From: a bacterium
GTDB lineage: Bacteria; Krumholzibacteriota; Krumholzibacteriia; LZORAL124-64-63
Direction of reading: 5' to 3'
Assembly (NCBI GenBank): GCA_018829565.1
Contig: JAHJTW010000022.1
Span: 1-52,359 of the forward strand
DNA length: 52,359 nt
In this document: one piece after another, positions 5,003-52,359 of the stretch
Layout of the letters: each line of letters opens with the position of its first letter
How positions within the stretch are numbered: position 1 is the stretch's first letter
The notes under the pieces: model-generated
Told to the model about the DNA's origin: nothing
Databases searched by the model: none
The model's input: only the letters and a program-made list of their open reading frames with translations
Translations under genes and position numbers: made by a program

Positions 5003-5005
5003 GGT

Positions 5006-5257: not shown

Positions 5258-5258
5258 G

Positions 5259-5781: not shown

Positions 5782-5794
5782 GGGACCGACCTCC

Positions 5795-8651: not shown

Positions 8652-8654
8652 CGC

Positions 8655-10151: not shown

Positions 10152-10166
10152 GACTCTCCCACGCTA

Positions 10167-10215: not shown

Positions 10216-10279
10216 ACGGCATCGTCAGTTATGATTTGGTGACTTCGCGGGGGCGAAGCCGCATGCGAAACACTCGGGT

Positions 10280-11250: not shown

Positions 11251-11388
11251 TCCCGGGGTGGACCTCAGGTCCGCCTACAGCGGATAGAATGCTTCCTTTG
11301 GTTATCTACCCGGGGGATGGTCGATGTGTCGGAGTGGGACTTCGCGATGTGAACGTCGTTCTGGGTGAGCACTGCTACCGATCGCTGT

Positions 11389-11994: not shown

Positions 11995-12065
11995 TGATCC
12001 CACTCCTTGTGGGGATAGTGGTTCGAATCAAGAGGCTGCCGTGCTCGGATAATGGACGGCCGGGC

Positions 12066-12983: not shown

Positions 12984-13013
12984 GGTGGCGGCCCTTTCTC
13001 GTCGCGGACGGTC

Positions 13014-13352: not shown

Positions 13353-13371
13353 GACTGCTCTCCTTCATGGC

Positions 13372-16470: not shown

Positions 16471-16484
16471 GGCGTCATCTCCAA

Positions 16485-17471: not shown

Positions 17472-17472
17472 G

Positions 17473-18807: not shown

Positions 18808-18900
18808 GGTTTGAATCCTTTTCCGAGATCAGCGCAGCCTAAAGACGTGGCACGACGAATCGGCCCGACGAATCATCCAGGGTTGTCTTCAGCGGTGAGG

Positions 18901-19251
18901 CTAGCAGCGGAGAGGCGGAAAGCCGGAGGGCAGGGGCAGCGGAAGCGAGACGCACGGGTCAGCCACAAAGGGCGCAGCGTCACCAGGCGTCGAGGCGATT
19001 CCGCCGAATTCGACGAGAGCGTGGACGCTGGCATCTATGTCCAAAGACAAATCACCTTTGCACCGGCTGTCGGGCAGGGGGACCACGGTGATGTTGCAGG
19101 GGTCACTCGAACAATGAACTTCGTGTTCGCAGGGTGTCTCTGGACAGGAAGGGCAGAAATGGTCCAGAGCGCCGGCAAGGCATGCCGTCGGCGCCAGGAG
19201 GAGCGACCAGAGAGTCGCAATCAGAACTGTTTTCATAATGCCCATAGGCAA
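18901..19251 (-). CDS. Small exported Cys/His-rich protein, CzcI/DUF2946-like
   Basis: Signal-like N-terminus, HFCPSCPETPCEHEVHC..C motif, Pro-rich C-terminus; first gene upstream of czcC. Confidence 0.6.
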   Translation of the reverse strand: MPMGIMKTVLIATLWSLLLAPTACLAGALDHFCPSCPETPCEHEVHCSSDPCNITVVPLPDSRCKGDLSLDIDASVHALVEFGGIASTPGDAAPFVADPCVSLPLPLPSGFPPLRC

Positions 19252-19350
19252 TCAAGATACCTTCTGTCTTATAATTCGCAAGCTCGTCTTTCCGAACAGT
19301 TACGGCCGCTTGGACATCGCCGGGCAATATTAGTTCCCAATCTCCATTGA

Positions 19351-21801: not shown

Positions 21802-22601
21802 CAGTCGATCCTCCCGGAGAAGGGGTTTCGGCCCGGCAGGCGCGACCAGCCCAAGTGGTTGATCAGGTTGCTGAACTTGTTCTGGCAGGTGGCCTCGAGG
21901 TGATCGCAGCCCCAGTAGGCCCACACCTGGTCGAGGGACGACAGCCCAGGCATCGGCGAGATCAGCGTGACGGTGTCGCCTTGGTGGTCGACGATGAAGC
22001 GGGTCTCGCCGGTGGAGGATTCGAGACGGCCCCCACGGAACCACTGGTCAGGGCGCAGGGCGAACCCGCTCGAAGTGACCGTCGCGCCCGCGACCGAAGT
22101 GACCGTGACCTGATCGCGGCACGCTCCGGGGTCCGCACCGCATGCCGCCGAGTAGAGCACATGGTTGCAGGGCGTCTGCATGGCCAGGATCGGCACCGTG
22201 CGCGCCAGCATGGCCATCAGGCTCGCGCCGGTGAGTATGGCCTCGGACTCTTCGAAGCGGGCGCGGATCACCTTGCCGCTGAAGATCGTCACCGCGAGGG
22301 ACTCCTCGCCGCGGTGGGCGCGGTATACGGTGACCCAGACCGGCGTGGACGGCAGGTCGCCGATGAACAGAGCGGCCACGGGGTTGGGCCGCGGCAGCGT
22401 CAGGTCGATCGTCTCGCCCGTGTCCTCCTGGGAGAAATCGAGCTCGCTGCGGGTGATGGCCTCAGGTGCGAACACTCCGGCGGGCAGCGTGATCGCCCGA
22501 TCGGCCGACGTGTAGAGCCACAGGTTGCTGCCCTGGGCGAACCGGAAGCCCTCGACGGGCTGACCCAGGTACCGGCTCTTCTCCCTGGCGTCGTAGGTCA
22601 C
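21801..22601 (-). CDS. Tail hub protein, DUF2163 / Phage_BR0599 family
   Basis: GTG start at 22601; QTPCNHVLY...CG, WFRGG, GCDH..ATC..KFSN..N..G...LP..NPF. Confidence 0.88.
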   Translation of the reverse strand: MTYDAREKSRYLGQPVEGFRFAQGSNLWLYTSADRAITLPAGVFAPEAITRSELDFSQEDTGETIDLTLPRPNPVAALFIGDLPSTPVWVTVYRAHRGEESLAVTIFSGKVIRARFEESEAILTGASLMAMLARTVPILAMQTPCNHVLYSAACGADPGACRDQVTVTSVAGATVTSSGFALRPDQWFRGGRLESSTGETRFIVDHQGDTVTLISPMPGLSSLDQVWAYWGCDHLEATCQNKFSNLINHLGWSRLPGRNPFSGRID

Positions 22602-34589: not shown

Positions 34590-34617
34590 GTCCTGAGCGC
34601 GGTGTCACCGTGGGCGC

Positions 34618-35175
34618 ATGGCACAGGAACTCACAAACCTCCCCGATCAGTTCGCCGCCGGCACGACCGTCAGCTACCGCAGGCGGTTGACGGACTTTCC
34701 GGCATCTGCCGGCTGGACACTCCGGCTCCATCTGGCCGGCGCGAGCGTGCTCGCCAAGACCGCGGCCGCCGATGGCGACGACTTCCTGGTCACCATCGAG
34801 GCTTCCGATACCGAGGGCGACTTCACAGCTGGCCTATACAAATGGGTCGAGCGGGTCAGCAGCGCGGGCGGAGAGGTCTACGAGGTAGACCGCGGCGCCA
34901 TCACGGTGCTGCCCAACCTGGCCGAGGCCTCCGAAGGCAGCGAGCAGGAGTGGATCGAGCGGGCGGTCACGATGCTGCGGGCCCACATCGAGGGCCGGCT
35001 GCCCGCGGGGATGGAGAGTTACCAGATCGCCGGCCGCGTCGTCGCCAAGATGCCGATCAAGGAGGCGATGAGCCTCCTGGCAAGCCTCGAATCCCGTCTC
35101 GCTGGCCTCAAAAACCCCGGGGCCTTCACGCGACCGGTGCTCGTGTCGTTCACCAAGCCAGGGTTCGATCGATGA
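34618..35175 (+). CDS. Head completion/adaptor protein with a gpW-like C-terminus
   Basis: Directly upstream of the portal; ESYQIAGR..KMP..E...L pattern. Confidence 0.65.
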   Translation: MAQELTNLPDQFAAGTTVSYRRRLTDFPASAGWTLRLHLAGASVLAKTAAADGDDFLVTIEASDTEGDFTAGLYKWVERVSSAGGEVYEVDRGAITVLPNLAEASEGSEQEWIERAVTMLRAHIEGRLPAGMESYQIAGRVVAKMPIKEAMSLLASLESRLAGLKNPGAFTRPVLVSFTKPGFDR

Positions 35176-36692
35176 AGCGACCGCTGCACAAGCGCCTTGG
35201 TCGCGCATTTCGGTCAGCCTTGCGGGAGTTGCGCGGTCAGCGCGGCGTATTCGACGGGGCGGGAGTCCACCGCCTGCTCCTGGACTGGATCGCCCAGACC
35301 CGGTCCGCGGACGAGGAAGTCCGCGGCGACATCCGCATGCTGCGGGCCCGCGCCCGCGAACTCGGCCGCAACAACAGCTACGTCAAACGCTACTTCCGTC
35401 TGCTGGTGACCAACGTCATCGGACCTATGGGGATCAAGCTCCAGGCCCAGGTCTGGGCCGGCGACCAGCCCGACTCGAAGGCCAACGCCGCCATCGAAGA
35501 GGCGTGGAACGCCTGGGCCAACGCGCCGGTGACGGTCGACGGCCGGCTCACCTTGCGCCGCTTCGAGAAGCTGATCCTCAAGACCGTGGCTTGCGATGGC
35601 GAGGCCTTTGTCCGCCTCTGGCGTGGGTTCGAGGGCAATGCCCACGGTTTGGCCCTGCAGGCGATCGACGCCGACCTGATCGACGAGACCTTCAATCGCC
35701 CTCGTCGCGGCACCCAGAACGAGATCCGCATGGGCGTGGAGATCGACGCCATCGGGCGGCCGGTCGGCTATTGGATCTGGGACTCGGTCGGTACCGACCT
35801 GATGCGGGAGCGGTACTTCATCCCGGCCGCGGAGATGCTCCACCTCTACGATCCCGACCGCGTGAACCAGACCAGGGGCGTCACATGGGTCCACTCGGTC
35901 ATGGTCCCGGCTCACATGCTCAACGCCTACGAAGAGTCGGAGGCCGTCGCCGCTCGGATCGGCGCCTCGAAGATGGGGCTGTTCGAGAAGCGAGCCGACT
36001 CCCTGGCCGGCGACCTGGCCAGCGATCCTCGGCCTGCCACCATGGAGGCCAACCCGGGGACGTTCGAGATCGTCCCTGATGGCTACGAGTTCAAGGCGTG
36101 GGAACCGGATCATCCCACGGCGCAGTTCCCGGCATTCATCAAGCAGATGCTCCGCAAGATCGCCTCTGGGTTCAGCGTCTTCTACAACGTGCTCGCCAAC
36201 GACGCCGAGGGCGTCAGCTATTCCACCATGCGCAGCTTCGCGCTAGTCGAACGAGACGACTGGCGCTCCATCCAGCAGGACTTCATCGACATGTGGCGGC
36301 GACCGCTGTATGCGGCCTGGCTCGGCATGGCGTTGCTCACGGGCAGCCTGAAGCTCTCCTCCCGCGATCCCTCCCGCTACATGGCCGTCCGGCATCGTCC
36401 TCGTGGCTGGCAGTGGATCGACCCCGAGAAGGAAGCCAAGGCCGCGGTGCTCTCGATCCAGAACGGTCTGGGCACCAGGACGGGATTCCTGGCTGAAAAG
36501 GGTGAGGACATCGAGGACGTCTTCGCCGAACTGGCGCGCGAGCAGGCGCTGGCCAAGGAGTACGGCCTGTCGATTTTCGGGGAGCCGGTACCGGCGGAGG
36601 AACCCAAGGAAGAGCAGCCCAAGGACTCCGAGGATCCGGAAGAAGAGAAGGACGAGGATCAGGCCGAAGTCGAGGACGAGGTGAATGCGTAG
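35172..36692 (+). CDS. Portal protein, lambda family
   Basis: ATG 35172 (ATGA overlap); LRARAR.L.RNN, DGEAFVR, LQ.IDAD, GVE.D.IGRPV.YW, RGV, SYS..R, WIDPEKE. Confidence 0.95.
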   Translation: MKRPLHKRLGRAFRSALRELRGQRGVFDGAGVHRLLLDWIAQTRSADEEVRGDIRMLRARARELGRNNSYVKRYFRLLVTNVIGPMGIKLQAQVWAGDQPDSKANAAIEEAWNAWANAPVTVDGRLTLRRFEKLILKTVACDGEAFVRLWRGFEGNAHGLALQAIDADLIDETFNRPRRGTQNEIRMGVEIDAIGRPVGYWIWDSVGTDLMRERYFIPAAEMLHLYDPDRVNQTRGVTWVHSVMVPAHMLNAYEESEAVAARIGASKMGLFEKRADSLAGDLASDPRPATMEANPGTFEIVPDGYEFKAWEPDHPTAQFPAFIKQMLRKIASGFSVFYNVLANDAEGVSYSTMRSFALVERDDWRSIQQDFIDMWRRPLYAAWLGMALLTGSLKLSSRDPSRYMAVRHRPRGWQWIDPEKEAKAAVLSIQNGLGTRTGFLAEKGEDIEDVFAELAREQALAKEYGLSIFGEPVPAEEPKEEQPKDSEDPEEEKDEDQAEVEDEVNA

Positions 36693-39465: not shown

Positions 39466-41616
39466 GTGAAGCAACGTAGGGACCTACGGCAACAAGACAC
39501 CGCAGAAAAGCTTGTTCGGATACAAGAGATGGCTTCCTTGTCTCTTTCAGATATTGCAGTGCTGCTGGGAGCGTCACTTGCCTCAACTGTACGCTGGCAA
39601 AGGGGCGACGTGCATCCCAGCCGGGATACAGAACGTAAAATCGACGACCTATTAGATCAGGCGACTAATGGCACGATTCCTACCATGAGACACGCATCTC
39701 TGTCGCACGTATTTGCGTCCCGAGGCGTCAGAACAAAGCCGGAACCGCTTTTTGATCATGACATCAAGATCTCCCTAGGCTCTGCGTCAGCACTTTCTTC
39801 TGTCCGGCCTGGCGTCAAGGGTTTTTGGGGGAGCAATCAAGCTATCCTAAGCGAACTGCTTTCAGACCATGAGCATGCCGCGAAGACCCTTCCTGTAGCA
39901 AGCCTTGGTGGCATGTCTGCGGGCAAGAACACCTATACATATGATGCCCATACGTATCACACTAAGGTTCCGCCTCAAGGTATCGCGGAAGTAATGTCGC
40001 GTTATCTGCCAAATGGTGGTCTCGTTCTTGATCCATTTGCTGGAAGTGGCATGACGGGCGTGGCAGCACGTGTTCTCGGCCTCGATGTAATACTCAATGA
40101 ATTGTCGCCAGCGGCTTCGTTCATCGCTGATCGCTTTACGTCATCACTTTCGCCGGCGATCTATTCGAGCGCCGTTGAAGCAGTCATACAAGAACTGCAG
40201 CCACTGCGTGCTCGCCTTTACCAAACCACTTGTCGTGAGTGCGGCCAGTTCACCGAAATCCTCTACACGGTCTGGTCATATCGTGTCACATGCTACGATT
40301 GCGGACACGAGTTTGTCCTTTGGGACCATTGCCGGCGATATGGAAACACCGTCAGAGAGCATAAGATCCTCTCGGCGTTCCCCTGCCCAGCCTGCGCCGC
40401 TCTCTTGAAAAAATCTCGACTCGCTCGAAGTTACGCCGTGCCTGTGTTGCTCGGCTACAAGTGCTGCTCGCGAACACAGATTGAGCATCCGCTAACCGAA
40501 TCGGACTTGGCTCTTATCAACGATATTGATGACAGCGTGCCTCTCGCTGACGGATTCTATCCGGAAACTGTCTTGCCGGATGGAGTAAATCTATCTCAAC
40601 CCAAACGACATGGCTTTTTGGAGGTCAAGGATTTCTACACGACCAGAAACCTGACCGCTTTGAGTCACCTCTGGAAAACTATTCACCGCGTCAATGACCG
40701 TACTGCCGCAGCCTTTCTCGCCTTCGCATTCACCTCGCTATATCAAAGGGTTACACGCCTATCTGAATATCGGTTTTGGGGGGGGAGTGGCAACACTGCC
40801 AACTACAACGTTCCCTATATCTTCAATGAAGCAAATGTATTTGTCACGTTTGCGCGCAAGGCCAAGTCCATTCGGGACCACCTCGCAACGACCGCGACGC
40901 GCTATCGGGGGCGCGCCCTTGTTCGCACCGGCAGCGCAACAAATATATCATTTCTCCCGGACGACTCCATCGATTTCATTTTCACGGACCCGCCATTCGG
41001 CGCTAACATCAATTACAGTGAAATGAATCTGTTATGGGAATCTTGGCTTGGTGCTTTTACCGATTGCGTGGAGGAGGCCATCGTAAACCGAACGCAGGGT
41101 AAAGGCGTGACCGAATACGGTGACCTGATGCGCCAGAGTCTGCGAGAATGTTATCGAGTGTTGAGGCCTGGTCACTGGATGGTTCTCGTATTCATGAATT
41201 CAAATGCTTCTGTTTGGGAGGCCCTCAAGTCTGCAATCGTCGATAGTGGGTTTGTACTCGAATCAGCAGAAATATTCGACAAGCAACACGCAACGTTTAA
41301 GCAGCTCGTAAGCGAAAATACCGCGGGTAGTGATCTATTGCTACATTGTCGGAAAGCGGGCTCTAGCAGTAGTGCAAGAAACACTCCGATGGCGGATTCT
41401 GTCGCGCGTTCGATTCCGGTCTATCTCGATCAAAGAGAAGGTCAGATTCCTACGTTGCCATATCTCCACGTCAAGCGTAGCACGGAAGTTGATTATCGCA
41501 CTCTGTATAGTGAATGGCTCAGTCAAGTTCTCCTTAGCTCGACACCGCCTATTGGCTTTGCTGACTTCCGAAGGATCGCATCTGACCACATCTCTAAGCG
41601 AGGCATGTCCCGATGA
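39466..41616 (+). CDS. DNA methyltransferase (N6A/N4C) with an N-terminal HTH and an internal Zn-ribbon
   Basis: HTH LSLSDIAVLLGAS.ASTVRWQRG; HTYHTKVPP; VLDPFAGSGMTG; CRECG/CYDCG/CPAC; FTDPPF; ECYRVLRPG. Confidence 0.9.
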   Translation: MKQRRDLRQQDTAEKLVRIQEMASLSLSDIAVLLGASLASTVRWQRGDVHPSRDTERKIDDLLDQATNGTIPTMRHASLSHVFASRGVRTKPEPLFDHDIKISLGSASALSSVRPGVKGFWGSNQAILSELLSDHEHAAKTLPVASLGGMSAGKNTYTYDAHTYHTKVPPQGIAEVMSRYLPNGGLVLDPFAGSGMTGVAARVLGLDVILNELSPAASFIADRFTSSLSPAIYSSAVEAVIQELQPLRARLYQTTCRECGQFTEILYTVWSYRVTCYDCGHEFVLWDHCRRYGNTVREHKILSAFPCPACAALLKKSRLARSYAVPVLLGYKCCSRTQIEHPLTESDLALINDIDDSVPLADGFYPETVLPDGVNLSQPKRHGFLEVKDFYTTRNLTALSHLWKTIHRVNDRTAAAFLAFAFTSLYQRVTRLSEYRFWGGSGNTANYNVPYIFNEANVFVTFARKAKSIRDHLATTATRYRGRALVRTGSATNISFLPDDSIDFIFTDPPFGANINYSEMNLLWESWLGAFTDCVEEAIVNRTQGKGVTEYGDLMRQSLRECYRVLRPGHWMVLVFMNSNASVWEALKSAIVDSGFVLESAEIFDKQHATFKQLVSENTAGSDLLLHCRKAGSSSSARNTPMADSVARSIPVYLDQREGQIPTLPYLHVKRSTEVDYRTLYSEWLSQVLLSSTPPIGFADFRRIASDHISKRGMSR

Positions 41617-42590
41617 GCTCTCTTCCTGCGTTCTCTGTAACGGAATACCAATCCGCCAAGCGGATTCTTGCCACACAGGTTGCCCTAATGATGGGTCGCA
41701 AGCTTGAAGAGGGGGACTGGACCCATGTGTATTGTAATTCCAAGGGGATTCCCGACACCGGCTGGAGCAATTTGCATATCGATATTGCGCATGAAGGCTT
41801 AGGTGTCGAATTAAAGATGCTTCGTTGTGCGCAGCTCAAAGGACGCCCTCTAAAGTCCGTCTGTGGAACGACACTCATGCATCCTGCTGCAACACGATCA
41901 ATTCGAATCGACGACCCAGAGAGAGAAGCAAACAAAGTAAAGGACGATGTTCTCTACCAATACGCAGAACTCATAAACGAAAGATCTCTTCGCGTCGCCC
42001 GAACCGGGTCCAGCGGCCGAGCAGATATGCGAACGGGATGGCTAATTTGGGAAGACACACTGACCGAGTTCCTATATTTCGAGGAGCCAATGATCGCCCC
42101 AGATCCGACTGATTTCTACGCCGAGTGGAATATTACGCCTGCGCGTGGGATCCGAAAATCCAGCAAGAGCCTTTGGGTTTACGAGGTGGGAACGAATCGC
42201 AAGCGGTATTCCGTTACCACAACTGCGGGAATTAAGATTCAGCCGTATTTTGATGTCCCACCGCCCTCAGACCCGAACCTCTACTATTTCCGTGTCCAGA
42301 GCGAGGCGCTTGATGCCGACACCATTCGGTTATGGATTCTTCCGAGCACAGCGCGAGCTCTTGAGAGCCGCCTCGGAATCCTCAATAAAGAATCCCTAAG
42401 TGGGGCCATATTGACTAATGCGGCTGCACTTGCGGCGGCAATTCCGGCAGACGCGCCAGACGATGGGCTCGCTGTTCCTGTTTTGATTTCTATGCGCGCT
42501 TACGAAGTCTTGGTTGGACTGTGGGAGGCGGTTAGCGATGAGCATCGTGCGCAAACACTCGCACGGGCTTTAGCATCCCTTCCGAAATAG
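41613..42590 (+). CDS. Putative restriction endonuclease (PD-(D/E)xK-like)
   Basis: ATGA-coupled to the MTase; HIDIAHEGLGVELK resembles a D..ExK catalytic motif. Confidence 0.55.
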   Translation: MSSLPAFSVTEYQSAKRILATQVALMMGRKLEEGDWTHVYCNSKGIPDTGWSNLHIDIAHEGLGVELKMLRCAQLKGRPLKSVCGTTLMHPAATRSIRIDDPEREANKVKDDVLYQYAELINERSLRVARTGSSGRADMRTGWLIWEDTLTEFLYFEEPMIAPDPTDFYAEWNITPARGIRKSSKSLWVYEVGTNRKRYSVTTTAGIKIQPYFDVPPPSDPNLYYFRVQSEALDADTIRLWILPSTARALESRLGILNKESLSGAILTNAAALAAAIPADAPDDGLAVPVLISMRAYEVLVGLWEAVSDEHRAQTLARALASLPK

Positions 42591-43352
42591 CAGGTCCTCT
42601 ACAGTCCCCCGCTCCGAGAGGGGGGTATATGGAGTCGTTTCTGGGCATTGTTCAGTGAAGTCAAGTTGGCCCCCGCCGACACCACGCGAGCAGCCGGCAC
42701 CGCGTGGTTTCAATCTCGTCGGGCCTGCCGGGATCGATATTTAGCCGGCATCCAACGGACAGATATCCTCGGGACACTGTAACTCGCATTGTAGCAATTG
42801 ATTGTCGTATCTGTGTTGTCAGAGGATATTCTATCGACCCGAAACCAAACCTCGGGATGATTTCGATAGCGGTTACGTTTGGGGAGCCATCTTTTTTTGC
42901 CTCGAACCCGGGTGGGGAGAGGTTAACAGCAGCCCTGGTCCGGTGAGGATCGGGGTTTTTGTATGTCTTTGTGGCGGAATGGCTTACGTGTCTGAGAATC
43001 GGGTTTGGAAGGTCTCTTGGGGACAGGATAAAAGAGAGAGGTCGCTGGGCTCGAAATCCGGACGCGGGGGTGTCTCGGAGTCTCGGAATCCTGCACGGAG
43101 GGCTATTTTGGTTAACAGCCAGCGCAGGGTCAGGCGGTACATCCAGAGCGCGGAGCGGTATATGCGATAGTCGACGATCGGGTGTGGACCTGGACGAGCC
43201 CGAGTGGGATAATCACTGCCAGGACGTCCGGAGGCTACACCGCCAGGCGGGATGTCCTGCGGGATGGTTTGGGTATTGAGTGCTGTTTAATTCACGTTGG
43301 CCGGAAGCCTGGGGGGCTGCTGAATCACGTTGGGCTAGTGGGAGGGTTCCTG

Positions 43353-44375
43353 GTGAGTGTCTCGAAGCGATGTTCTTTATGCGCAGTAGTCGTCTCCGGG
43401 GACGCCCAGAGGGCCGCCAAGTGGGTCCGTCACTCCTATCCTGTCTTGGCAGCTGAAGGCGGGGTTCGAATCCTGCTCGTCCCGTGGGGCAAAAATTCTG
43501 AAGCAGTGATCCGCGAATTCCCGCCCGTCGTGCAGGTCAAACGAGCGCAACTCGAGAACCATACGCTCGAGGACAATCTCAACTTGGCGCTGGTGAGCCT
43601 GCTCGAATCCCCGCCTGACCTGGTTGCGTTCCTCGATGATGATACCTATCTGCGCTCTAACTGGGCGCGGGCAATGTTGCAATCGGCTGAAGAGGACAAG
43701 GATGCGGGCGCGTTTGCAAGCGTCGTATTCTCGGCGACCAGCGGGAAGCTGCAGAGTCAGGGGCATGCGTTTGTAAATGCTGCGCCGCGCGACCGCGGAT
43801 TTAATGGGAAGGGTCTTACGTGTCCCCTGCTCGGTCCCTGTAGCAATAGCGCGGTCGTGCGGTGGTCGGCGATCGCGGGAATCCGTGATGTACACCCTCA
43901 AGTGTGGGACCCGCTGTTCAATCAGCGACAGACCTGTTTTGACTTCGGCCTCAAGCTAGCGCTTACGGGCGTGCGTTCCCTGATCGTCGAGGCGGCTGAA
44001 GCGGACCATGAAGGGTACCTATCGACTGGCACTGAATGGCCGTACATGCGTGCAGCGGAGGAGGTCCGGCTGCAGCTGTCGCGGCGATACCTCCTGTATG
44101 CCAAGTTCCTATCGGGGAGGGCGTACAAGTGCGCGGTCCGTGCGCTCGAAGACCGGATTCCGCGCTGGCGTCGGGACGGCTATCCACACTTCCACCAAGT
44201 GGTGGGCGATGCAGTGGACGAGGTTCACGCTGCCGCAGTCGTCGAGGCTCGACGGCTAATGAGCTCGCTGTTGACGTCGGCGTGGCGTACCCTTATGGAG
44301 CGCCGGTCTGATCAGTTCGACCTGCTCGGGCTCGGTGATCCTGGCTGTTGCCTCCCAACAGCAACGTGCAAATGA
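43353..44375 (+). CDS. Glycosyltransferase, GT-A fold (family 2-like)
   Basis: GTG 43353 after GGAGG; NLNLAL, DLVAFLDDDT (DxD motif), NSAVVR..A, FDFGLKL...G. Confidence 0.78.
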   Translation: MSVSKRCSLCAVVVSGDAQRAAKWVRHSYPVLAAEGGVRILLVPWGKNSEAVIREFPPVVQVKRAQLENHTLEDNLNLALVSLLESPPDLVAFLDDDTYLRSNWARAMLQSAEEDKDAGAFASVVFSATSGKLQSQGHAFVNAAPRDRGFNGKGLTCPLLGPCSNSAVVRWSAIAGIRDVHPQVWDPLFNQRQTCFDFGLKLALTGVRSLIVEAAEADHEGYLSTGTEWPYMRAAEEVRLQLSRRYLLYAKFLSGRAYKCAVRALEDRIPRWRRDGYPHFHQVVGDAVDEVHAAAVVEARRLMSSLLTSAWRTLMERRSDQFDLLGLGDPGCCLPTATCK

Positions 44376-44908: not shown

Positions 44909-45952
44909 ATGGATCCAAAAATAGAAAATGTTTACTTCAAAGATCGCCGCGGAGAAGTCCGTGGACCGTTTGAAGTCTACAACGAAGATCCAAAGTTCAC
45001 GATTCTTAATAATAATAGCGGGCCATGGGATCACGTCTTCAGGGGGCATACCCTCGTACGCCACCTTTCCAATGGAAGGATTGAAAATCGCCACATCTTC
45101 GCTGTAAGTTGGTACGGAGCTATAATGTTCCCATCACTTGAGATCATTGCCCCGAAACAGGTCGTTAAGCCTGGTTCGGAAAAGCGCTTTGCGCGCGATA
45201 GAGCGTTTTCGTGGAATCCGACTGCAGAAGAAATGCCACCTATACTCGATTTTCGTCCTGGCACAACTATCATGGGTGGCCGCGACAGTGGTTTTTACGA
45301 TAGCGAGGGGATCATAATTGAAGCTGAACATACAGGCGGAGACCCAAAGCGGGAAGAGGACTGGTTGTTTCGAGTCATTGCAAAGACTACTGATGGGGAA
45401 TGGCTGGGGCCCTACTGGATCCTTCTCTGTGATGTTGGGTTCCCGATTACTGAGCCGGAATGGTTATGGGAATTCCCCTTGGAGCCAAGCAAGCCGATCG
45501 ACGAACTCCTGGCAGCCGGAGAGCAGGAACTTTTTGAGTACTTCGCAAGTCACCCGAAAGAGCTAGTGAACCTTAGCCCGCGACGTTTCGAAGAGTTAGT
45601 TTTGGCGATATACCGAAATCTGGGCTTTGCGACCGAGAGAGTAGGTGCCTGGAATCAGCAAGATGGTGGGGTGGATTTACTTGCGGTTTCGAGAACGGAG
45701 GCGGGAACGGAATTTCGGATCGCGATCCAATGCAAGACTTCGGGGCGGAAAATATCGGCACGACCGATTCGTGAGCTGGCCGGAGTACTTGGTGTTTTTC
45801 ACGCACACCAAGGCGTCGTTGCGACGACCTCAGCATTTACTGGACCTGCGAGAAAGGAGGTCGAGGGGTCGCTGTGGCAAATTTCACTGCAAGACAAAGA
45901 CGACTTATATAGACGTATTTTATCGATTCTTGTACCAGATTTGAAATTATGA
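44909..45952 (+). CDS. Mrr-like (Mrr_cat) restriction endonuclease with an unrecognised N-terminal domain
   Basis: LSPRRFEELV..IY..LG, DGGVDL, IQCK, I..RPIREL.G, GVVATTS.FT..AR.E. Confidence 0.88.
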   Translation: MDPKIENVYFKDRRGEVRGPFEVYNEDPKFTILNNNSGPWDHVFRGHTLVRHLSNGRIENRHIFAVSWYGAIMFPSLEIIAPKQVVKPGSEKRFARDRAFSWNPTAEEMPPILDFRPGTTIMGGRDSGFYDSEGIIIEAEHTGGDPKREEDWLFRVIAKTTDGEWLGPYWILLCDVGFPITEPEWLWEFPLEPSKPIDELLAAGEQELFEYFASHPKELVNLSPRRFEELVLAIYRNLGFATERVGAWNQQDGGVDLLAVSRTEAGTEFRIAIQCKTSGRKISARPIRELAGVLGVFHAHQGVVATTSAFTGPARKEVEGSLWQISLQDKDDLYRRILSILVPDLKL

Positions 45953-45963: not shown

Positions 45964-46200
45964 TCAAATGTTTGAATGACCCATCTCAAGGGACCCCATG
46001 AGCCTGCTAACCCTTGCCCTCAACACCCCGCACATACGCGCCACGGCCGCCGTCTCAGCTACCTCCCCGGACCGGACGAGTCCATCGATCCAGTAGGCGA
46101 GGGCGAGATTCCGGGCCCGGCGAGACGCCCAGTCCTGCCCCTGTCGTTCGGCCTTGGCCCTGGGGGTGCGGACCAGGTCACCCCGCAGCCTAGCGCGGTA
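45964..46200 (-). pseudogene. Copy D of the recombinase-associated HTH gene, 5'-truncated
   Basis: Translates ..AKAERQGQDWASRRARNLALAYWIDGLVRSGEVAETAAVARMCGVLRARVS; no in-frame start after the DUF4041 stop. Confidence 0.85.
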
Positions 46201-47844
46201 TCACTCGATTTCTTCTTCAGCCAACCCGACAACTGACGTATCGAGCTCCAATTGTCGATTCAGCCACGCCTCCCGGGCGGCGGGGTCGTCTTTGATGGCT
46301 CTTTCGATCGCCAACGTCTCGCGGTAGTCCCGGGCTTCAGCGGCCATAGTCCATTTACACTCGAGACCCAGAGCTTCGATCTCCTGACGGATATCGGCGA
46401 TGGTGGCCCGGAAGAACTCCTTCCGATAATTTACCTTGTTGACTTGCGCAAGCGCGAAATGGCGGTGCAGGCGAGTCTCCAGCGTTGGCGCGTCATCAGA
46501 AAGAATCATGGCGTGCACGTCGAAATCGAACGGAACACTTGAATCGCCGAGTTCGCGTACTCGATCCAGGGGTTCAAGTCTGCGCGTCAGGCCAATTTTG
46601 AAGACATCGTCCCCGAAAGAGCCAATGTTGGAAATGATATAGACGTGGCCGCGGCGGGTTTGCTGGGCCATCGAAATTGCACGCTGATTGCGCTCTTCCG
46701 TTTCAAGGAGCTTCGCCGTCAGCTCTGCCAGCTTCTGCTCGAATGCCGCGCGCTGTTCAGCATTGGCGTGTGCAACCTGCTCCTGTGCCTTGGCCATGGC
46801 CTTACGTAGCATATCCTCTTCCTTGGCTGCGTCGCGAATGGCTCGCTCGAATTCCTTGCGGGCCTTTTCCTCTTCGCGCAGTTGCTCTCGTACGCGGCGC
46901 TGCTCCTCGCGCTCCTCGAGCTTCAGCTGCTGTGCCACCGCCGCCCATCTCAGCTCATCGAGTCGGGCAGCCAAGTACTGATCGGTGATGTGTGCGTCGC
47001 GGAATGCCTTGCCGTTGAGGTTGACAACAGTGAAGGCATCCCGGATTTCCTGGGAAAGCGTACCGGCGTTGTCATGGCGGACGCGAGAAAGGATCGAATC
47101 TACCTTGCCATTGAAAGCGTCGGTAACGAAGGCGATGGCAGTTGTTCGACGGTTGTCCTCAACGTATGAACACGAGGCGGCTGTGTCGCTGCGAATCATT
47201 GACCGTGTCACTTTGCGGGCGTTCTTGAGGGCTTCTCCAGCCTCGGTGTAGCCAAATTCCTCGGCAAGGTCATCAAGAAGGCTAATGCTCGGGATGAGGT
47301 ATGCATCCCCGTAGCCGTCGACTATGTTCTTCATAGCGCGCGCTGCCTTTTCGTATAGGGCGGCGTTGTTCATTGCCTTATAGGCCTCTCCAGCGATCTG
47401 CTCCGCGTTTGCATGGGCGTCGGAAATAATCTTGGTGGCCTGGGTCGCGGCGCAATCCAGAGCAGATTGGGCATCGTCTTTCATTGTCTTGGCCTGCTGG
47501 CGCGCGTGGGACAATGCCGTCATTGCTTCTGAGGCAGCCAAGGTTCGTTCTGATTCTGCATTTGCGAGAATCTCCGCAGCTTTTGCGGAAGCATCGACAA
47601 TACCGCGATATTGAGATAGGGTGGCGACTTCAGATAGAGCCTTTGACAAATTCTCGTTGGATTGCTGCAGTGAAGATTCAAGTTCCTGTGTTTTCGCTGT
47701 GGCCTGGGTTAAGTGGTCCTTGGCCTCGCGTAGAGCCGCGGCGCGATCGCGCGACAGTTTTGTCTGTTGAACAAGTCGATTGCCCAACACCGCGATAGCA
47801 ACGATGAAGATGACAAGGAGAGCGTAGGCAAGATTGGTGATCAT
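46201..47844 (-). CDS. DUF4041 + T5orf172/MUG113 (GIY-YIG-like) domain protein with an N-terminal TM anchor
   Basis: FNGKVD, L..RL.EL, EEQRR.REQ.REE, GHVYIISNIGSFG.DVFKIGLTRRLEP.DRV.ELGD.SVPF.FDVHA. Confidence 0.92.
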   Translation of the reverse strand: MITNLAYALLVIFIVAIAVLGNRLVQQTKLSRDRAAALREAKDHLTQATAKTQELESSLQQSNENLSKALSEVATLSQYRGIVDASAKAAEILANAESERTLAASEAMTALSHARQQAKTMKDDAQSALDCAATQATKIISDAHANAEQIAGEAYKAMNNAALYEKAARAMKNIVDGYGDAYLIPSISLLDDLAEEFGYTEAGEALKNARKVTRSMIRSDTAASCSYVEDNRRTTAIAFVTDAFNGKVDSILSRVRHDNAGTLSQEIRDAFTVVNLNGKAFRDAHITDQYLAARLDELRWAAVAQQLKLEEREEQRRVREQLREEEKARKEFERAIRDAAKEEDMLRKAMAKAQEQVAHANAEQRAAFEQKLAELTAKLLETEERNQRAISMAQQTRRGHVYIISNIGSFGDDVFKIGLTRRLEPLDRVRELGDSSVPFDFDVHAMILSDDAPTLETRLHRHFALAQVNKVNYRKEFFRATIADIRQEIEALGLECKWTMAAEARDYRETLAIERAIKDDPAAREAWLNRQLELDTSVVGLAEEEIE

Positions 47845-47938
47845 GTAGTACCTGCCATGTTTAGCATCTGAAACGCTTTAGGAACGACCCGCTTTCGGGC
47901 ATAATCGCATGTGGCGTGATTCGAATCGTTATGGGAGC

Positions 47939-48357
47939 TTACGGTATAAGGGCGCCGCCGTCAGCAAAATCTTGCTTAGGGAATTGGGAGAACGATTGCC
48001 CAAGATTTGCTGGGCCGGTCTGACAGGCGGGCGGGGACGAGATGAGGCTGTTCACGAGCGCCCGCTCCTGCTGCTCTCCCGCTTGTTCCAGCAATGCCAC
48101 GATAGCAGAAACCCGCGCCCTGCTCACCCCACACATCCTTGCCACGGCCGCCAGGTCCGCCACTTCCCCAGAGCGAACCAGCCCGTCGATCCAATAGGCC
48201 AGCGCCAGGTTCCTGGCTCGGCGTGCCGCCCGGTCCTGACTCTGCCGCAGCTTGGCTCGACCCACGGACACAGACGTCGGCTCAGGGCGCGTCCTGGCAC
48301 CGCGACCTTGACCTCGACCCTCAGGGCCGCGGAGCGGACCGCCAGGTTGAGTGGCAT
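47939..48357 (-). pseudogene. Copy C of the recombinase-associated HTH gene, frameshifted near the 5' end
   Basis: ALRVEVKV.. in one frame (ORF 48124-48357) and QDRAARRARNLALAYWIDGLVRSGEVADLAAVARMCGVSRARVS in another (ORF 47939-48271). Confidence 0.85.
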
Positions 48358-48358
48358 A

Positions 48359-49102
48359 CTAGGTTTCTATGCGCGAGACCGGGGGGTACGGGAACTCAAG
48401 TGCTAGCCCCTCCCAGTCTAGCACCCAGACCCGCCGAAAGGGACCCAATCCGCGTTCACGAAGGAGTTTGACTAGGGCATTTAAATACTGACGATCGTGA
48501 CCCCAAGCAAGTCCTCCAAAATGTGCCAGAAGCTCGATGGGGCAGTCGGTTTCGTAAAACTTTGAGAGCTTCGAAGAAAAGGCCGCCATCGGTACGGTCG
48601 GGTCGAAACTGCCACCAAGGTTGAAGTTCACGGCGCCCGGGTCATTGAGCCGCCCGGCGAAGCATACCTTTATGACCGCGCCAGCGACAGTGGGCGAGAA
48701 TGAAACGAACTCATCGTTAGTCGGTGTCGCCGACAGTAGTTCTATAAGGAGAGCCGGTAGTATGGTCTTGATTCTGACTAGGGAGGCCTCGGGCCTGAAG
48801 TAGAACCTAAGAGGTCTGTTGACGAAGCGGCGTTCGAAAGAATTGCGCGACGGTGCATCAAGCCCGTTGTATGCATCCATGATTGCGTTGTGGATTCGCT
48901 GGGCAGAGAACATGAACCGCGCATTGGCAGGATTGCAGATCTCGACCAACTCAAAGGCCACGGAGCCACCCGTTGCCAAACCGCATCGTACGTCAGGTTC
49001 TGGTGGAAACCGCTTCTCGATAGTCGCAGGCAGAACTGGGAGCCCCGCAATCTCAACGAAGTGGCGGAATATTCTAATTTCGTCTTCAGATTGATCAACC
49101 AT
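48359..49102 (-). CDS. Hypothetical protein (247 aa), possible nuclease-like fold
   Basis: Long AT-richer ORF; EPDVRC....VAFELVE near the N-terminus; GTTAGGT lies just upstream. Confidence 0.6.
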   Translation of the reverse strand: MVDQSEDEIRIFRHFVEIAGLPVLPATIEKRFPPEPDVRCGLATGGSVAFELVEICNPANARFMFSAQRIHNAIMDAYNGLDAPSRNSFERRFVNRPLRFYFRPEASLVRIKTILPALLIELLSATPTNDEFVSFSPTVAGAVIKVCFAGRLNDPGAVNFNLGGSFDPTVPMAAFSSKLSKFYETDCPIELLAHFGGLAWGHDRQYLNALVKLLRERGLGPFRRVWVLDWEGLALEFPYPPVSRIET

Positions 49103-49534
49103 GAAAGTACTGGCCACCTAACTGGCGTTCGGCCGCTCCACGGATACTGAGTTCAAGGTCGAAACGCGTCTGGATACCTTCGGGTCGCTCAAGTAGCCGG
49201 TCGCGGTATTCCGCCGGTAGCGCGGATTGGACCGAACTCTCAAATCGCATTCACAATGGAGACTCGACGTGCCAACCTGCGTTCCGCGCGAAAGACTAGT
49301 CCAGATAGCTTCGAGTGGGCAGCAAGCGTACATGACAGGGCAGCCGCTGTCCAGTCGGAGGTCAGTGCAGTCCGGTGGGGGCATTCGAAAGGGTTCGCGG
49401 GTTGCCGCGCTCGGCAGGTCCGATATCGTGGCAGCTCTGTGGTAGGTGGTGTTGCCGCGCGAGCGGCCGCAGAGGCGCGTCGCCCTGGTCAGGTACCGGA
49501 GACGGGGCAAAGTGAAGCAGGGTTGGCGGGTCTG

Positions 49535-49740
49535 TCTGCGAGAATCCAATCCTGAACCCTCCGTACCGGCAGGAAGTGCATGCCGCAGAGCTTTTGTCAG
49601 GCGCGCCCGGGAGACTCGGCTTAGCTTTGCGGCGGACGTCAGATCGGCCACCTCCCGCTCCTGACCAGATGGTCGATCCAATAGGCCAACGCCAAGTCCC
49701 TGGCCCGGCTGGCGGCTCGGTCTCTCATACCGCTTCAAAA
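49535..49740 (-). pseudogene. Copy B of the recombinase-associated HTH gene, truncated and frameshifted
   Basis: AASRARDLALAYWIDHLVRSG, a 1-nt deletion, then EVADLTSAAKLSRVSRARLT. Confidence 0.8.
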
Positions 49741-49753
49741 CCCCTCCATTTCC

Positions 49754-49813
49754 TAATAACGCATGAATTAGGCTGAGCCTCGAAGCGATTTCGGTCTGAA
49801 TGAATTGTCAGAG
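49754..49813 (-). other. attC-like site (59-base element), 60 bp, degenerate
   Basis: CTCTGACAATTCATTCAGACCGAAATCGCTTCGAGGCTCAGCCTAATTCATGCGTTATTA closely resembles recalled aadA-type attC (..TAACAATTCATTCAAGCCG..GCTTCG..GGCTTAATTCA.GCGTTAG). Confidence 0.75.
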
Positions 49814-49829
49814 CCTGCGCTCGCCAAGG

Positions 49830-50117
49830 TTAGCTCTCGGGTATAAGGTCGCCGAAGGCCCACAAAAAGGTTCCGAATATAGTTGCGGAATAGACGATGT
49901 GCATGAGGCGCTGTTTCAGGGTAATGCCGCTGCTAAGCTTGCGCGTGAATTTTTCTGGGTTTGCGAACATGTAACCCTGCAGAAATACCGCCATTCCAAC
50001 TAAAGTGCCTCCGATCCGACCGGGCCAACCAATGTCTCCGACAAGGGATGTGAGTAACGAAGCAAGACCAAAGCTGCCAAAGACGAGCAGCGCAGAAAGA
50101 ATGGCGCTGTAGATCAT
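49830..50117 (-). CDS. Small membrane protein (about 3 TM, 95 aa)
   Basis: Start re-called at ATG 50117 after GGGAG; three hydrophobic segments; flanked by attC-like sites. Confidence 0.7.
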   Translation of the reverse strand: MIYSAILSALLVFGSFGLASLLTSLVGDIGWPGRIGGTLVGMAVFLQGYMFANPEKFTRKLSSGITLKQRLMHIVYSATIFGTFLWAFGDLIPES

Positions 50118-50136
50118 TGCGAATGCTCCCTGTGGG

Positions 50137-50194
50137 CTCGATCGTTGACGATCAACCACCGTCGAGGGTGGGCGGCTGAAACGGCAGGGATGGC
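50137..50194 (-). other. Degenerate attC-like site, 58 bp
   Basis: GCCATCCCTGCCGTTTCAGCCGCCCACCCTCGACGGTGGTTGATCGTCAACGATCGAG: internal stem and attC-like ends; the upstream ORF reads through it. Confidence 0.5.
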
Positions 50195-50697
50195 GTCGCC
50201 GCCTCCCCGGGATAGGCATGTAACCAAAGCTCGATTGGCGATAGACCAGCAAAGCTCTCGGCTACAAGTCGTACTAGCTTAGCGGCCTTGTCAACTTCAT
50301 ACCCGTACAGCAAGTAGATCGCGCGCTCGTAACCGACCTTAGTACGAAACAGGGATAACTTTCTCAAGTCGTCCTCGATCCCGGAGCGTTTCGCATTGGA
50401 TGATTTAACCTCTATGATTATTTTGTTGCCGGCCATGTGCCCTGGCTGATGGACAAGAAGGTCAGGTTTAGCAAAATCAGCACCGAGTTTCTTAAGGATT
50501 GGGTGGGCGGCTTTATCGAGTTCACCATTCAGGCAATACTGTGTGTCTGCCGGCCATAAGCACCGGAGTTGGTGGTACAGTTCATAGCAGTACACCCGCT
50601 CCCGATAGACCGGATCACCTCCGTCCAGCTCAATATGAAAGTAAAGCGGGGCAATCTGCTTAGTAGAAACCTTGAGAAGATCCGTGAATTCGTGCAT
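50152..50697 (-). CDS. PD-(D/E)xK-like nuclease-fold protein
   Basis: ATG 50697 after AAGGAG; RERVYCYELYHQLR, KPDLLVH....IIIEVK; GTTAGGC at 50713-50719 upstream. Confidence 0.72.
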   Translation of the reverse strand: MHEFTDLLKVSTKQIAPLYFHIELDGGDPVYRERVYCYELYHQLRCLWPADTQYCLNGELDKAAHPILKKLGADFAKPDLLVHQPGHMAGNKIIIEVKSSNAKRSGIEDDLRKLSLFRTKVGYERAIYLLYGYEVDKAAKLVRLVAESFAGLSPIELWLHAYPGEAATPSLPFQPPTLDGG

Positions 50698-50805
50698 TGG
50701 TTCTCCTTGAATGCCTAACCAGGGCCACCCGGATCCATATATTGTAAGAATTCCGCGACGCAACCCGTGCAGTGGAATCAATGGGTGCCGGTAGTGGCTG
50801 ATATT

Positions 50806-51213
50806 CTATTCCCATGAGGGGCTTCCGAATGCGGCGGATGGTACACCAGTTGGCCGGTAAGGTAAAGAAGAGATGGAATGAAGGGCGAATTTGGAGGGCG
50901 CTGCCAATTTCTTCAGGGGGGCGCGACTACCGACAAGTTTCTCCTGTTCTGCTGCAGGTATCCCCAGCATCCCCACGACATTGCTGACCCTCGCCCGAGA
51001 TACTCTGCACATTCTGGCCACGGCCGCCAGGTCTGCGACCTTCCCGGACCGAACGAGCTCGTCGATCCAATAGGCGAGCGCGAGGTTCCTGGCCCGCCGT
51101 GCCGCCCGGTCCTGCCGCTGGCGCTCAGCTTTGGCCCCGGGGGCCGGCTTGGGGGCGGGGCGGCGGCCAGCCAGCTGGACCTTGAACTCGACCCTCAAGG
51201 CATCGTCGTTCAC
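50806..51213 (-). CDS. Recombinase-associated small HTH protein (copy A, intact)
   Basis: GTG start overlaps the recombinase stop (GTGA); RARNLALAYWIDELVRSGKVADLAAVARMCRVSRARVSNVV HTH pattern. Confidence 0.8.
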   Translation of the reverse strand: MNDDALRVEFKVQLAGRRPAPKPAPGAKAERQRQDRAARRARNLALAYWIDELVRSGKVADLAAVARMCRVSRARVSNVVGMLGIPAAEQEKLVGSRAPLKKLAAPSKFALHSISSLPYRPTGVPSAAFGSPSWE

Positions 51214-52359
51214 CGTAGTGCCTCCTGTGCCTTCGCCACCTCGTCGGCCAGCGAGCGGATTCCGGTGGGTTTGAAGGTGATGGCCAGAGTTCCTGCAGTG
51301 GCGTCGAAGTCGATCCTTTCGATCAGCAGGTTGATGACCCGTTCCTGCTCCCGGGGGAACAGACAGCCCCAGACCTCATCGAACAGGGCAAGGCTGCGGG
51401 CGAGGTGCCGCTTGTCGATGGTTTGGTCTCTCAGGACAGCAAGCTCCCGTGCGATTTCCTCGAGGCGGGCCTGGATGCGCCCGATTTGCTCTCGGTCCTC
51501 ATCCCGCCCCGTGTCAATCAGCCTGGCCAGTTCTCGGTCCAGCCTCCGCTGTTCGGCAGCCAGCTGGGGTGTGCGGCTCTTCTGGATGCTGCGAATCTGC
51601 TCCAGAGTCCCGGCAACCAAGTCGGGGTCCCTGCCGATGGCCTTGATCCGCGCCACCACGGCATCCTCGATCTGCTGGGCCGGCAGGGAGGGATGCGGGC
51701 ACAACTTCCAGCCGTTGCGCGTGGCGTTGGTGCAGACGTAGTACCGGAACGCCCGGCCATTCTTGCGGGTCACACTCGGCGACATGGCGCAGCCGCAGGC
51801 CGTGCAATGCAGCAGGCCGCGCAGGAGATGCCCGTAGCGGTTCTTGGCTTTCGCCCCACTGCTGACGTTGTTCTGGGCGAGCAGGGCTTGGACGCGGTCG
51901 TAGAGGTCCACAGGGACGATCCCGGGGTGCTCGCCGTCATAGATTTGCCCGTGGTGGGACACCCGGCCCACGTACAGCGGATTGCCGAGCAGCCTGGACA
52001 GGTTGGACTTCTGGAACGGCACGCCCTCGTGGAACGTCCCTCCCTTCGTGGCCCAGGACTTGGTCCGCCAGCCGCGGCGGTTGAGCTCCCGGGCCAACAG
52101 CTGCAGTGACCTCAGATCCAGGTAAAGGGTGAAGATCTGCCGGACTGTCTCGGCTTCCTCCTCGTTCACCACCAGCCGCCCACCGCCGGGGTGGACGTCG
52201 TAGCCCAGGACCGGGAAACCGCCGGTCCATTTCCCCTTCTTGCGGGCCGCGGACATCTTGTCCCGGGTCCGGTCGGCGATCATCTCCCGTTCGAACTGGG
52301 CGAAGCTGAGCAGGACGTTCAGCATCAGCCGCCCGCTCGAGTCCGCGGTGTTGATCGGC
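51210..52359 (-). CDS. Large serine recombinase (resolvase + recombinase + Zn-ribbon domains); 5' end lies outside the window
   Basis: INTADSSGRLMLNVLLSFAQFEREMIADR.RD...A.RKKG.W.GG...LGYD; L.NPLYVG; LLRGLLHC..CG..M; YYVC. Confidence 0.95.
   Translation of the reverse strand, partial: PINTADSSGRLMLNVLLSFAQFEREMIADRTRDKMSAARKKGKWTGGFPVLGYDVHPGGGRLVVNEEEAETVRQIFTLYLDLRSLQLLARELNRRGWRTKSWATKGGTFHEGVPFQKSNLSRLLGNPLYVGRVSHHGQIYDGEHPGIVPVDLYDRVQALLAQNNVSSGAKAKNRYGHLLRGLLHCTACGCAMSPSVTRKNGRAFRYYVCTNATRNGWKLCPHPSLPAQQIEDAVVARIKAIGRDPDLVAGTLEQIRSIQKSRTPQLAAEQRRLDRELARLIDTGRDEDREQIGRIQARLEEIARELAVLRDQTIDKRHLARSLALFDEVWGCLFPREQERVINLLIERIDFDATAGTLAITFKPTGIRSLADEVAKAQEALR

Follow-up and report, generated by a model that had tools for sequence, protein, structure and literature searches.

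The closest known pattern to the locus described here is that of the orphan C-terminal toxin/immunity modules in Rhs and CdiA loci, in which a conserved upstream gene is followed by a variable 3' module and older, co-oriented modules headed by 3' fragments lie downstream (PMC3967940). The modules are of independent, horizontal origin, and the kept fragments constitute direct repeats that could mediate later deletion or switching. Defence hotspots of temperate phages (10.1101/2021.01.21.427644), recombinase-linked stacks of defence cassettes (PMC11470126) and islands marked by scars (10.1101/2020.12.28.424599) are also known already. In the current analysis we have studied the contig JAHJTW010000022.1 (assembly GCA_018829565.1), a stretch of 52,359 nucleotides from a bacterium of the Krumholzibacteriota and referred to as the window, in which a gene for a large serine recombinase (LSR) is followed by a small helix-turn-helix (HTH) gene and by cargo genes punctuated with three further HTH copies. 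The array is probably part of a phage defence hotspot that grows by recombination between phages, older units made up of an LSR 3' end, an HTH gene and cargo being displaced downstream. Polar accretion of the units is supported, and the recombinase-driven, integron-like capture suggested in a preliminary description of this DNA is not supported.

Four minus-strand HTH copies, one intact and three degraded, have been recognised between 45964 and 51213 by repeat finding, alignment, tblastn and a DNA profile built from 18 related loci, in whose coordinates positions within the copies are given. Their number and common strand are as described earlier, and the nhmmer matches together with inspection of the frames confirm the states proposed for them: A intact, B truncated and frameshifted, C frameshifted and D truncated at the 5' end (Table 1). 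The frameshift of copy B falls in the middle of the HTH, after the residues LVRSG. An N-terminal piece of copy C (ALRVEVKV) lies in another frame up to about 48357, which makes this copy frameshifted relative to A; a 110-aa frame in it (47939-48271, GTG start) spans the complete HTH domain, and the same open reading frame (ORF) is called in an independent assembly. Copy D is in frame, lacks a start codon and begins 31-35 nt past the stop codon of the SNIPE gene described below. The copies share 58-76% pairwise identity over the core, and the repeat finder reports 64-76% to its reference copy. The intervals between them had been described as AT-richer, and the GC content is indeed 0.50-0.56 in the cargo as against 0.65-0.69 in the copies. 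The earlier statement that the copies start at the 3' end of the preceding cargo holds for C and D, which lie within about 35 nt of it, and fails for B, which follows the preceding ORF at a distance of about 100 nt. The statement that only the recombinase-proximal copy stays intact is true of the window; elsewhere complete distal copies occur in L016, L033, L042 and L052 (L-numbers denote the related loci fetched, L050 being a longer copy of the window contig). Decay does not follow position in the window, the second copy (B) being the most degraded, and in the window and four other arrays the intact copy is separated by a weaker remnant from a distal copy that is better preserved. C-terminal remnants of the LSR upstream of B, C and D were sought with a profile and none was found; a derivation by eye of the tail of the 252-aa ORF from the LSR tail was dropped, as the profile search detected nothing there.

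The recurrence of the array has been examined in 42 non-redundant loci scanned with the DNA profile, 25 of which extend at least 3 kb downstream of the first copy. At least two HTH copies are present in 13 of these 25 loci and at least three in six, and L052 has four, as the window does. All 23 extra copies are co-oriented with the first copy and downstream of it, and the 10-kb upstream flanks contain none, so that the polarised array claimed for the window is a recurrent feature. The 5' part of the unit is missing in each of the 23, with the start at profile position 117 or beyond or with the HTH body absent; the 3' end is missing (end before position 526) in only about seven, and about 16 are complete on that side. 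Several extra copies retain the 3' end of the LSR gene, from residues ~388, 411, 426, 441 and 458-461 of 506, and therefore represent what is left of LSR-HTH pairs that have been cut upstream.

Similar arrangements are seen in more distant sequences. Three distant LSR-HTH members from relatives of the host (G029:C577, G002:C12 and G035:C249; HTH E-values 1e-7 to 1e-12) have two co-oriented HTH matches spaced by 1-2 kb, or about 12 kb in G035:C249. Ahead of one lies a remnant of the LSR 3' end that begins near residue 411, and the pattern is thus not confined to the close family. The metagenome-assembled genome (MAG) that is the source of the window has a second, more decayed array on its contig C168 (2287 nt), at 1292-1762 and 2001-2178. 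The order on this contig is a gene for a host-like secreted protein (305-940), an LSR 3' remnant (from about residue 441), an HTH with 42% identity to copy A and an HTH fragment at the contig end. The contig G063, the IMG/VR record of L056 (25,698 nt), has two LSR 3' remnants (from residues ~427 and ~388) with HTH pieces and no full LSR within its length.

The copies of one array are not closer to each other than to those of other phages. The median core identity is 0.64 within arrays as against 0.66 between loci, and a distal copy has its nearest neighbours among the proximal copies of other phages. Judged from these identities, the copies were acquired independently and not duplicated in place, which lends support to the sequential accretion of cargo that had been suggested. 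The second unit of L042 comprises an LSR 3' end, the HTH gene and 1.5 kb of cargo and matches the L054 proximal unit with its cargo at 94% identity over 1.9 kb, while the platforms of the two loci share 82%. The distal unit of L016 similarly shares 82% with the proximal unit of L017, as compared with 72% between the two proximal units. A unit that is proximal in one phage is thus distal in another, which fits the prediction of downstream displacement. A closer relative of copy C in proximal position was searched for, and only the identical sequence from another assembly was obtained.

Tandem duplication of the HTH gene in place followed by divergence, or an assembly artefact, would also give direct repeats on one strand, and it is exceedingly improbable. 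The identity of 58-76% among the copies is no higher than that to copies of other phages, and no long exact repeats are present that could mislead an assembler. A Logan assembly from a different run is 100% identical to the window over 47611-49779, which includes part of B, the 252-aa gene, C and the start of the SNIPE gene; the order from B to C is therefore not an artefact of assembly. The same pattern is also found in long-read MAGs, and with these results the possibility of an artefact raised earlier is excluded.

Exchange of the downstream part independently of the recombinase is evident from comparisons of close pairs. The synonymous divergence of the HTH gene is 3-8 times that of the LSR gene (1.52 vs 0.29 between the window and L024), and the HTH and the cargo are therefore exchanged separately from the LSR. 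The change of identity between relatives falls at or just after the HTH start. L033 and L042, with platforms 93% identical, differ by a 1.4-kb segment that has left no extra copy; its left end lies inside the first HTH gene and its right end is intergenic, before a shared cargo gene. From these ends the conserved LSR-HTH pair would serve as a left homology arm for the exchange of cargo.

We therefore consider it probable that the array belongs to a hotspot in which related phages recombine and displace resident units, the mechanism being likely homologous on the left and illegitimate on the right. The left crossover, placed within the HTH gene or the conserved integrase operon, would be homologous, and the right junction would be non-homologous. 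Where the right junction falls inside a resident LSR 3' end or HTH, the incoming HTH with its cargo would become the LSR-proximal unit, and the resident unit would be pushed downstream with the loss of its 5' end, start codon and translational coupling. The old unit would then persist as an orphan that is truncated at the 5' end, complete at the 3' end and still attached to its cargo, and repeated events would stack such units. A scar would arise only if the right junction falls within the resident LSR-HTH. Relaxed homologous recombination is known for phage recombinases (PMC3945230) and is a plausible source of the left crossover. The replication modules of L058 and L059 include an AAA_24 protein.

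Four observations weigh against the displacement of older units as a full account. The cargo genes of the window have no homologue in any other fetched locus, so that the history of this particular array is not traceable. A parental pair was not found for any junction of the window, where the joining could be by illegitimate recombination or by short homology. Complete distal ORFs with their own start codon exist (L016#3 and L052#4) and copy C keeps its 110-aa frame; not all the extra copies therefore need be dead scars. In the LSR 3' end, finally, the starts of the L016 and L033/L042 remnants and of the contig end of L040 differ by no more than 4 nt.

The last of these observations bears on a recombinase-driven capture of cassettes, in which the LSR, perhaps with the HTH protein, inserts circular units of LSR 3' end, HTH and cargo in the manner of an integron at attI. 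The clustered starts, those of three remnants and one contig end, lie within 4 nt of the boundary CGC|GAGCAGGAGCGCGTCAT, about 138 nt before the LSR stop, and the homology of the L042 distal unit to the L054 proximal unit begins at this point as well. The arrays are polar and always beside the LSR, and identity between close relatives drops near the LSR/HTH boundary. The remaining starts, about 25, are scattered from LSR residue 388 to HTH codon 75, and the 29 start points over 485 nt fit a uniform spread, the tightest cluster arising by chance in 46% of uniform simulations (P = 0.46). The cluster is thus compatible with chance, and a weak site preference is possible. Even well-preserved remnants begin at differing positions (117-121, 158, 208, 258, 275, 285 and 331). 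The two independent cargo-side flanks have no half-site in common, and the entropy at third codon positions in 28 full units reveals no long conserved run in the LSR 3' end or the HTH, that is, no att-sized stretch of suppressed synonymous variation that would indicate an embedded site. Cargo also turns over without leaving a copy, as between L033 and L042. Capture of this kind is accordingly unlikely, and the LSR itself is probably not the catalyst of the events. The preliminary description had proposed a capture platform comparable to an integron or CRISPR array, with random copy breakpoints named as a result contrary to it; random breakpoints are what has been observed, and the ends of the prophage discussed below lie elsewhere.

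A recombination hot spot in the LSR 3' end was also considered as a candidate and dropped, since the drops of identity reflect mostly a hypervariable patch and the change at or after the HTH start, and the start points are not clustered beyond chance. The patch lies in the C-terminal tail of the LSR, 75-114 nt before the stop codon (window ~51290-51325, minus strand). It reads DATAGTL in the window and DAERETV or similar in relatives, and both its flanks are near-identical in close relatives.

The 3' end of the integrase operon could alternatively be an active landing pad, where the LSR, or the ParB-like HTH protein bound close to its own gene, makes breaks or promotes strand exchange; defence segments of other phages would preferentially be taken up there, with imprecise junctions, and displace older units downstream. 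We regard this as improbable on the present data. If true, it would make the locus a phage-borne, recombinase-assisted platform for gene capture, the enzymology of which is masked by the imprecise junctions.

The LSR encoded at the end of the window has sequence matches in the PDB to the integrases of TP901-1, A118 and SPbeta. Large serine recombinases are defined here by an N-terminal resolvase catalytic domain, a recombinase domain and a zinc ribbon in a protein of about 450-600 aa; the complete protein in L050 has 506 aa and all three Pfam domains, and is of the phage-integrase type. The operon consists, from upstream to downstream, of two DUF2924 genes, a small ORF, the LSR gene and the HTH gene. 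The HTH family has 246 relatives at E-values of 0.001 or less (the best 120 of the 246 being listed), with members of about 100 aa, and no model in Pfam. A gene of this family directly follows an LSR of the same clade in all the fetched loci, including distant relatives with LSR identity of 40-55%. The AlphaFold model of copy A comprises a long helix followed by a three-helix HTH (mean pLDDT 72), and its top fold matches are the HTH domains of ParB, Spo0J and Noc, though these are not significant (E ~1); the sequence has no significant match among solved structures. The motif LLG.P..EQE.L is consistent with an HTH of the ParB type. The HTH protein is a dedicated, translationally coupled partner of this LSR clade and possibly acts as a regulator or as a directionality or accessory factor of the LSR. 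A generic regulator of defence genes was considered for it and ruled out, the gene being always tied to the LSR. In L016 (Ahniella contig G065:C19, 8465-10294) the LSR and the HTH form a single open frame of 610 aa, because a G-run immediately ahead of the usual GTGA overlap is longer by one G; this is either a real fusion or a homopolymer error of long reads. Contig C109 of the source MAG has an LSR fragment 59% identical to the LSR of the window (15340-15744, minus strand) and a weak HTH-like match (13946-14146, plus strand), a pair in opposite orientation, unlike that in all other loci, where the two are co-oriented.

The tie between HTH and LSR also bears on the question whether the extra copies are functional paralogues, each HTH regulator travelling with the defence cargo downstream and controlling it. 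Complete distal ORFs that have a ribosome-binding site and a start codon of their own (L052#3 and #4, L016#3 and L041) would fit this idea, as would the call of the 110-aa frame of copy C as a gene in an independent assembly and the preferential retention of the 3' ends of the copies. Copy B is, on the other hand, frameshifted within its HTH and copy D has no start codon, and members of the family have been found only directly behind this LSR clade and never alone before defence genes. The adjoining cargo is often on the opposite strand, as exemplified by Gabija in L052, and the HTH copies ahead of the homologous cargo of L016 and L041 are not closely related. Paralogues of this kind are quite improbable as a general explanation, somewhat more so than capture by the recombinase.

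A further possibility considered is that whole elements integrated in tandem, with the LSR/HTH junction as their attachment site; the HTH would then be a detached integrase tail, and deletion of the older elements would leave composite scars as in staphylococcal cassette chromosome (SCC) elements. The jump in synonymous divergence between LSR and HTH, the presence of unrelated DNA up to the exact HTH start codon in some copies (L041) and the single frame of LSR and HTH in one Ahniella element would be expected from such integration. The fused frame, however, depends on the one extra G in a long-read assembly, and LSR, HTH, cargo and a downstream anchor gene are contiguous within contigs of 129-383 kb. 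The Ahniella contig contains two collinear prophages (~10-58 kb and 62-92 kb) that share about 70% identity, with homologous segments on both sides of each LSR-HTH-cargo block, and the ends of the prophage must therefore lie several kb beyond the array and not at the LSR/HTH junction, in the one genome in which this could be checked. An attachment site at the junction is contradicted by this pair, and tandem integration appears very improbable. A tandem repeat with a period of about 690 nt, in 4-5 copies of 98-99% identity, is situated upstream of the first prophage on the same contig (4629-7789).

The position of the array between conserved phage genes is a common property of the family. Five long contigs share a layout of replication genes on one strand followed by divergent small ORFs, two DUF2924 genes, an ORF of about 58 aa, the LSR and the HTH, and the loci that keep this architecture come from many samples. 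Variable cargo of 2-9 kb follows the HTH in relatives and includes Gabija, MmeI-like and Type ISP systems, the latter with a HEPN protein, and a helicase of 1,841 aa. The far side is anchored in most relatives by a conserved gene on the opposite strand. Its product of 175-235 aa has an N-terminal coiled coil, a Lys/Ala-rich middle part resembling histone H1 and a C-terminal Rok-like winged helix. The anchor and terminase genes share a strand in an IMG/VR contig, which suggests that the anchor is a phage gene. The phage of the window is without it, and a homologue is present on contig C124 of the same MAG. A tRNA or tmRNA gene was considered as downstream anchor and none was found in the window or in 19 loci, the anchor being a protein gene. 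By a phage defence hotspot we mean a fixed position between conserved phage genes where the cargo is enriched in defence systems and differs from one relative to the next; all the loci have the conserved integrase operon on one side, and most relatives have the Rok-like gene on the other.

The window is the entire contig C162 of a MAG of 354 contigs with 67% GC, and is a temperate phage of about 54 kb. L050, a 54,093-nt version of the same contig with one mismatch in 11,554 nt, reaches 1.8 kb past the window end and supplies the full locus with the small ORFs, the two DUF2924 genes, the LSR gene and the HTH gene. A circular contig has been ruled out, L050 having no terminal overlap. Structural and replication genes are found across the window (Table 1), and the array therefore sits within the phage genome, between the integrase operon and the structural genes. 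Large ORFs occupy 11340-19350, between the ParB-methyltransferase and the tail genes. G063 has a terminase 90% identical to that of the window and is collinear with window positions 1300-11300 before it diverges; its array region is about 11 kb from the ParB-methyltransferase gene, as against about 36 kb in the window.

Table 1. Genes and HTH copies of the window, with examples of the anchor gene from related contigs
Feature	Coordinates	Strand	Description
Prim-Pol primase	1646-3841		phage gene
GpA-type terminase	6254-8104		phage gene
ParB-methyltransferase	8655-10151		phage gene
Tail protein	19351-22044		phage gene
Tape measure	27005-29566		phage gene
Major head protein	32545-34527		phage gene
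Portal	34602-36692		phage gene
PglX-like methyltransferase	39466-41616	opposite to array	beyond the 325-aa ORF; Pfam, PADLOC
325-aa ORF	41613-42590	opposite to array	beyond the GT2-like gene
GT2-like gene	43182-44375	opposite to array	beyond the Mrr-type gene; Pfam, PADLOC
Mrr-type (type IV restriction-like) nuclease	44909..45952	+	Pfam Mrr_cat E 5.5e-23; PADLOC; convergent
HTH copy D	45964..46170	-	5'-truncated (profile 331-526); nhmmer match 45970-46167, E 9e-38
Cargo 3, SNIPE / PD-Lambda-1	46201..47844	-	547 aa; PADLOC PD-Lambda-1 E 1e-112
HTH copy C	47939..48357	-	nhmmer match 48050-48324, E 1.6e-48
Cargo 2	48359..49117	-	252-aa protein
GC-rich stretch	49118..49538	-	420 nt, 60-65% GC, between copy B and the 252-aa gene
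HTH copy B	49539..49740	-	pseudogene, 5'-truncated (profile 360-542); nhmmer match 49539-49724, E 3e-20
Cargo 1b	49830..50252	-	small membrane-type ORF, 140 aa (gene caller 95 aa)
Cargo 1a	50152..50781	-	209-aa ORF (gene caller 181 aa); weak PD-Lambda-3_A match, PADLOC E 6e-6; no Pfam hit
HTH copy A	50806-51213	-	intact, 135 aa; GTG start overlaps LSR stop (GTGA), translationally coupled
LSR gene	51210..52359	-	last 382 of 506 codons, gene cut by contig end; Pfam Resolvase, Recombinase, Zn_ribbon_recom
Anchor gene, L031	18064-18642		example from a related locus
Anchor gene, L037	6247-6948		example from a related locus
Anchor gene, source MAG	C124:16095-16730		homologue in the same MAG

The cargo of the window includes defence genes, as had been claimed, on the basis of PADLOC and Pfam matches and in agreement with the Gabija, MmeI-like and Type ISP with HEPN systems of the relatives. 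The gene earlier labelled DUF4041 has that domain, and the label has been updated to a SNIPE / PD-Lambda-1 defence protein. SNIPE proteins are recognised by an N-terminal membrane helix, DUF4041 and a nuclease domain of the T5orf172/GIY-YIG type, and the product of this gene has a hydrophobic N-terminal transmembrane helix, Pfam DUF4041 and a T5orf172/MUG113 nuclease. SNIPE is a membrane-bound nuclease that cuts phage DNA during injection (10.1101/2025.11.03.685801). The cargo gene nearest to the recombinase was taken for a PD-(D/E)xK nuclease, a label now corrected to the weak PD-Lambda-3_A match listed in the table; together with the small membrane-type ORF it makes up a PD-Lambda-3-like pair. 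No family match in Pfam, PADLOC or PHROGs has been obtained for the small membrane-type ORF or for the 252-aa protein. The GC-rich stretch next to copy B is read by the gene caller together with the second half of B as an ORF of 206 aa, for which no homologue has been identified. The Mrr-type gene beyond copy D is the first in the opposite-strand half of the same hotspot.

The LSR-HTH pair marks a widespread environmental family of temperate phages, defined by the DUF2924-LSR-HTH operon. The defence hotspot of these phages is rich, turns over fast and lies at a predictable position, so that searches for new defence systems can start from the conserved pair. Both in the window and in relatives, a known family is lacking for several cargo genes. 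The degraded HTH copies constitute a fossil record in which cargo is added next to the integrase and older units are retained instead of being replaced. Polar arrays punctuated by repeats may lie beside a recombinase that has not produced them, and caution is required in reading such arrays. The picture may be set beside the moron or mosaic model of phage evolution, which is reportedly due to Hendrix, Juhala and colleagues. A search of the literature brought up neither this phage family nor a hotspot punctuated by displaced integrase-partner copies. To our knowledge, a hotspot punctuated by remnants of a flanking gene has not been described for the P2-like phages or P4-like satellites.

Among the known systems, integrons resemble the locus, as do the tycheposon arrays at tRNA genes, in having polar stacks of unrelated cargo beside a recombinase gene (10.1101/2020.12.28.424599). 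Integrons depend on the tyrosine recombinase IntI with attI and on structured attC sites, neither of which is present here: the only recombinase is a serine recombinase, the boundaries are scattered and the repeat at the junctions is HTH homology alone, as seen without a dedicated attC finder, and a scan with Rfam models gave matches at chance level only. The scars of tycheposons are partial target-gene copies, pieces of host tRNA genes that site-specific integration leaves behind (10.1101/2020.12.28.424599), and these are absent from the locus. The composite SCC and SCCmec islands, with CcrAB or CcrC, likewise have a large serine recombinase beside stacked cargo, some of which is anti-phage defence (PMC11470126). 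SCC units are bounded by short, precise att-core direct repeats in the host gene rlmH and excise as circles (PMC11470126), unlike the present array, which has imprecise, scattered boundaries, no core repeat that could be found and no host target gene, and which is located inside a phage and not at a chromosomal attB.

The hotspots of P2-like phages and P4-like satellites are similar in their fixed position between conserved genes and in their variable, AT-richer and exchanged defence systems (10.1101/2021.01.21.427644). They differ in that the present hotspot belongs to another phage family, has an LSR-DUF2924 integrase operon, comes from environmental metagenomes and records its earlier states in remnants of the flanking gene. 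As regards the orphan modules of Rhs and CdiA loci, no evidence has been obtained here of the reactivation of orphans. The conserved part is here a phage integrase operon (LSR and HTH) and there a toxin, and the variable part is here defence cargo and there a toxin tip with its immunity gene. The signs of displacement known from those loci are found nonetheless in this family, with all 23 extra copies co-oriented and 5'-truncated, about 16 of them 3'-complete, some still carrying LSR 3' fragments, and with identities that point to an independent origin. The orphan-module logic of Rhs and CdiA loci is thus now seen in the defence cargo of phages.

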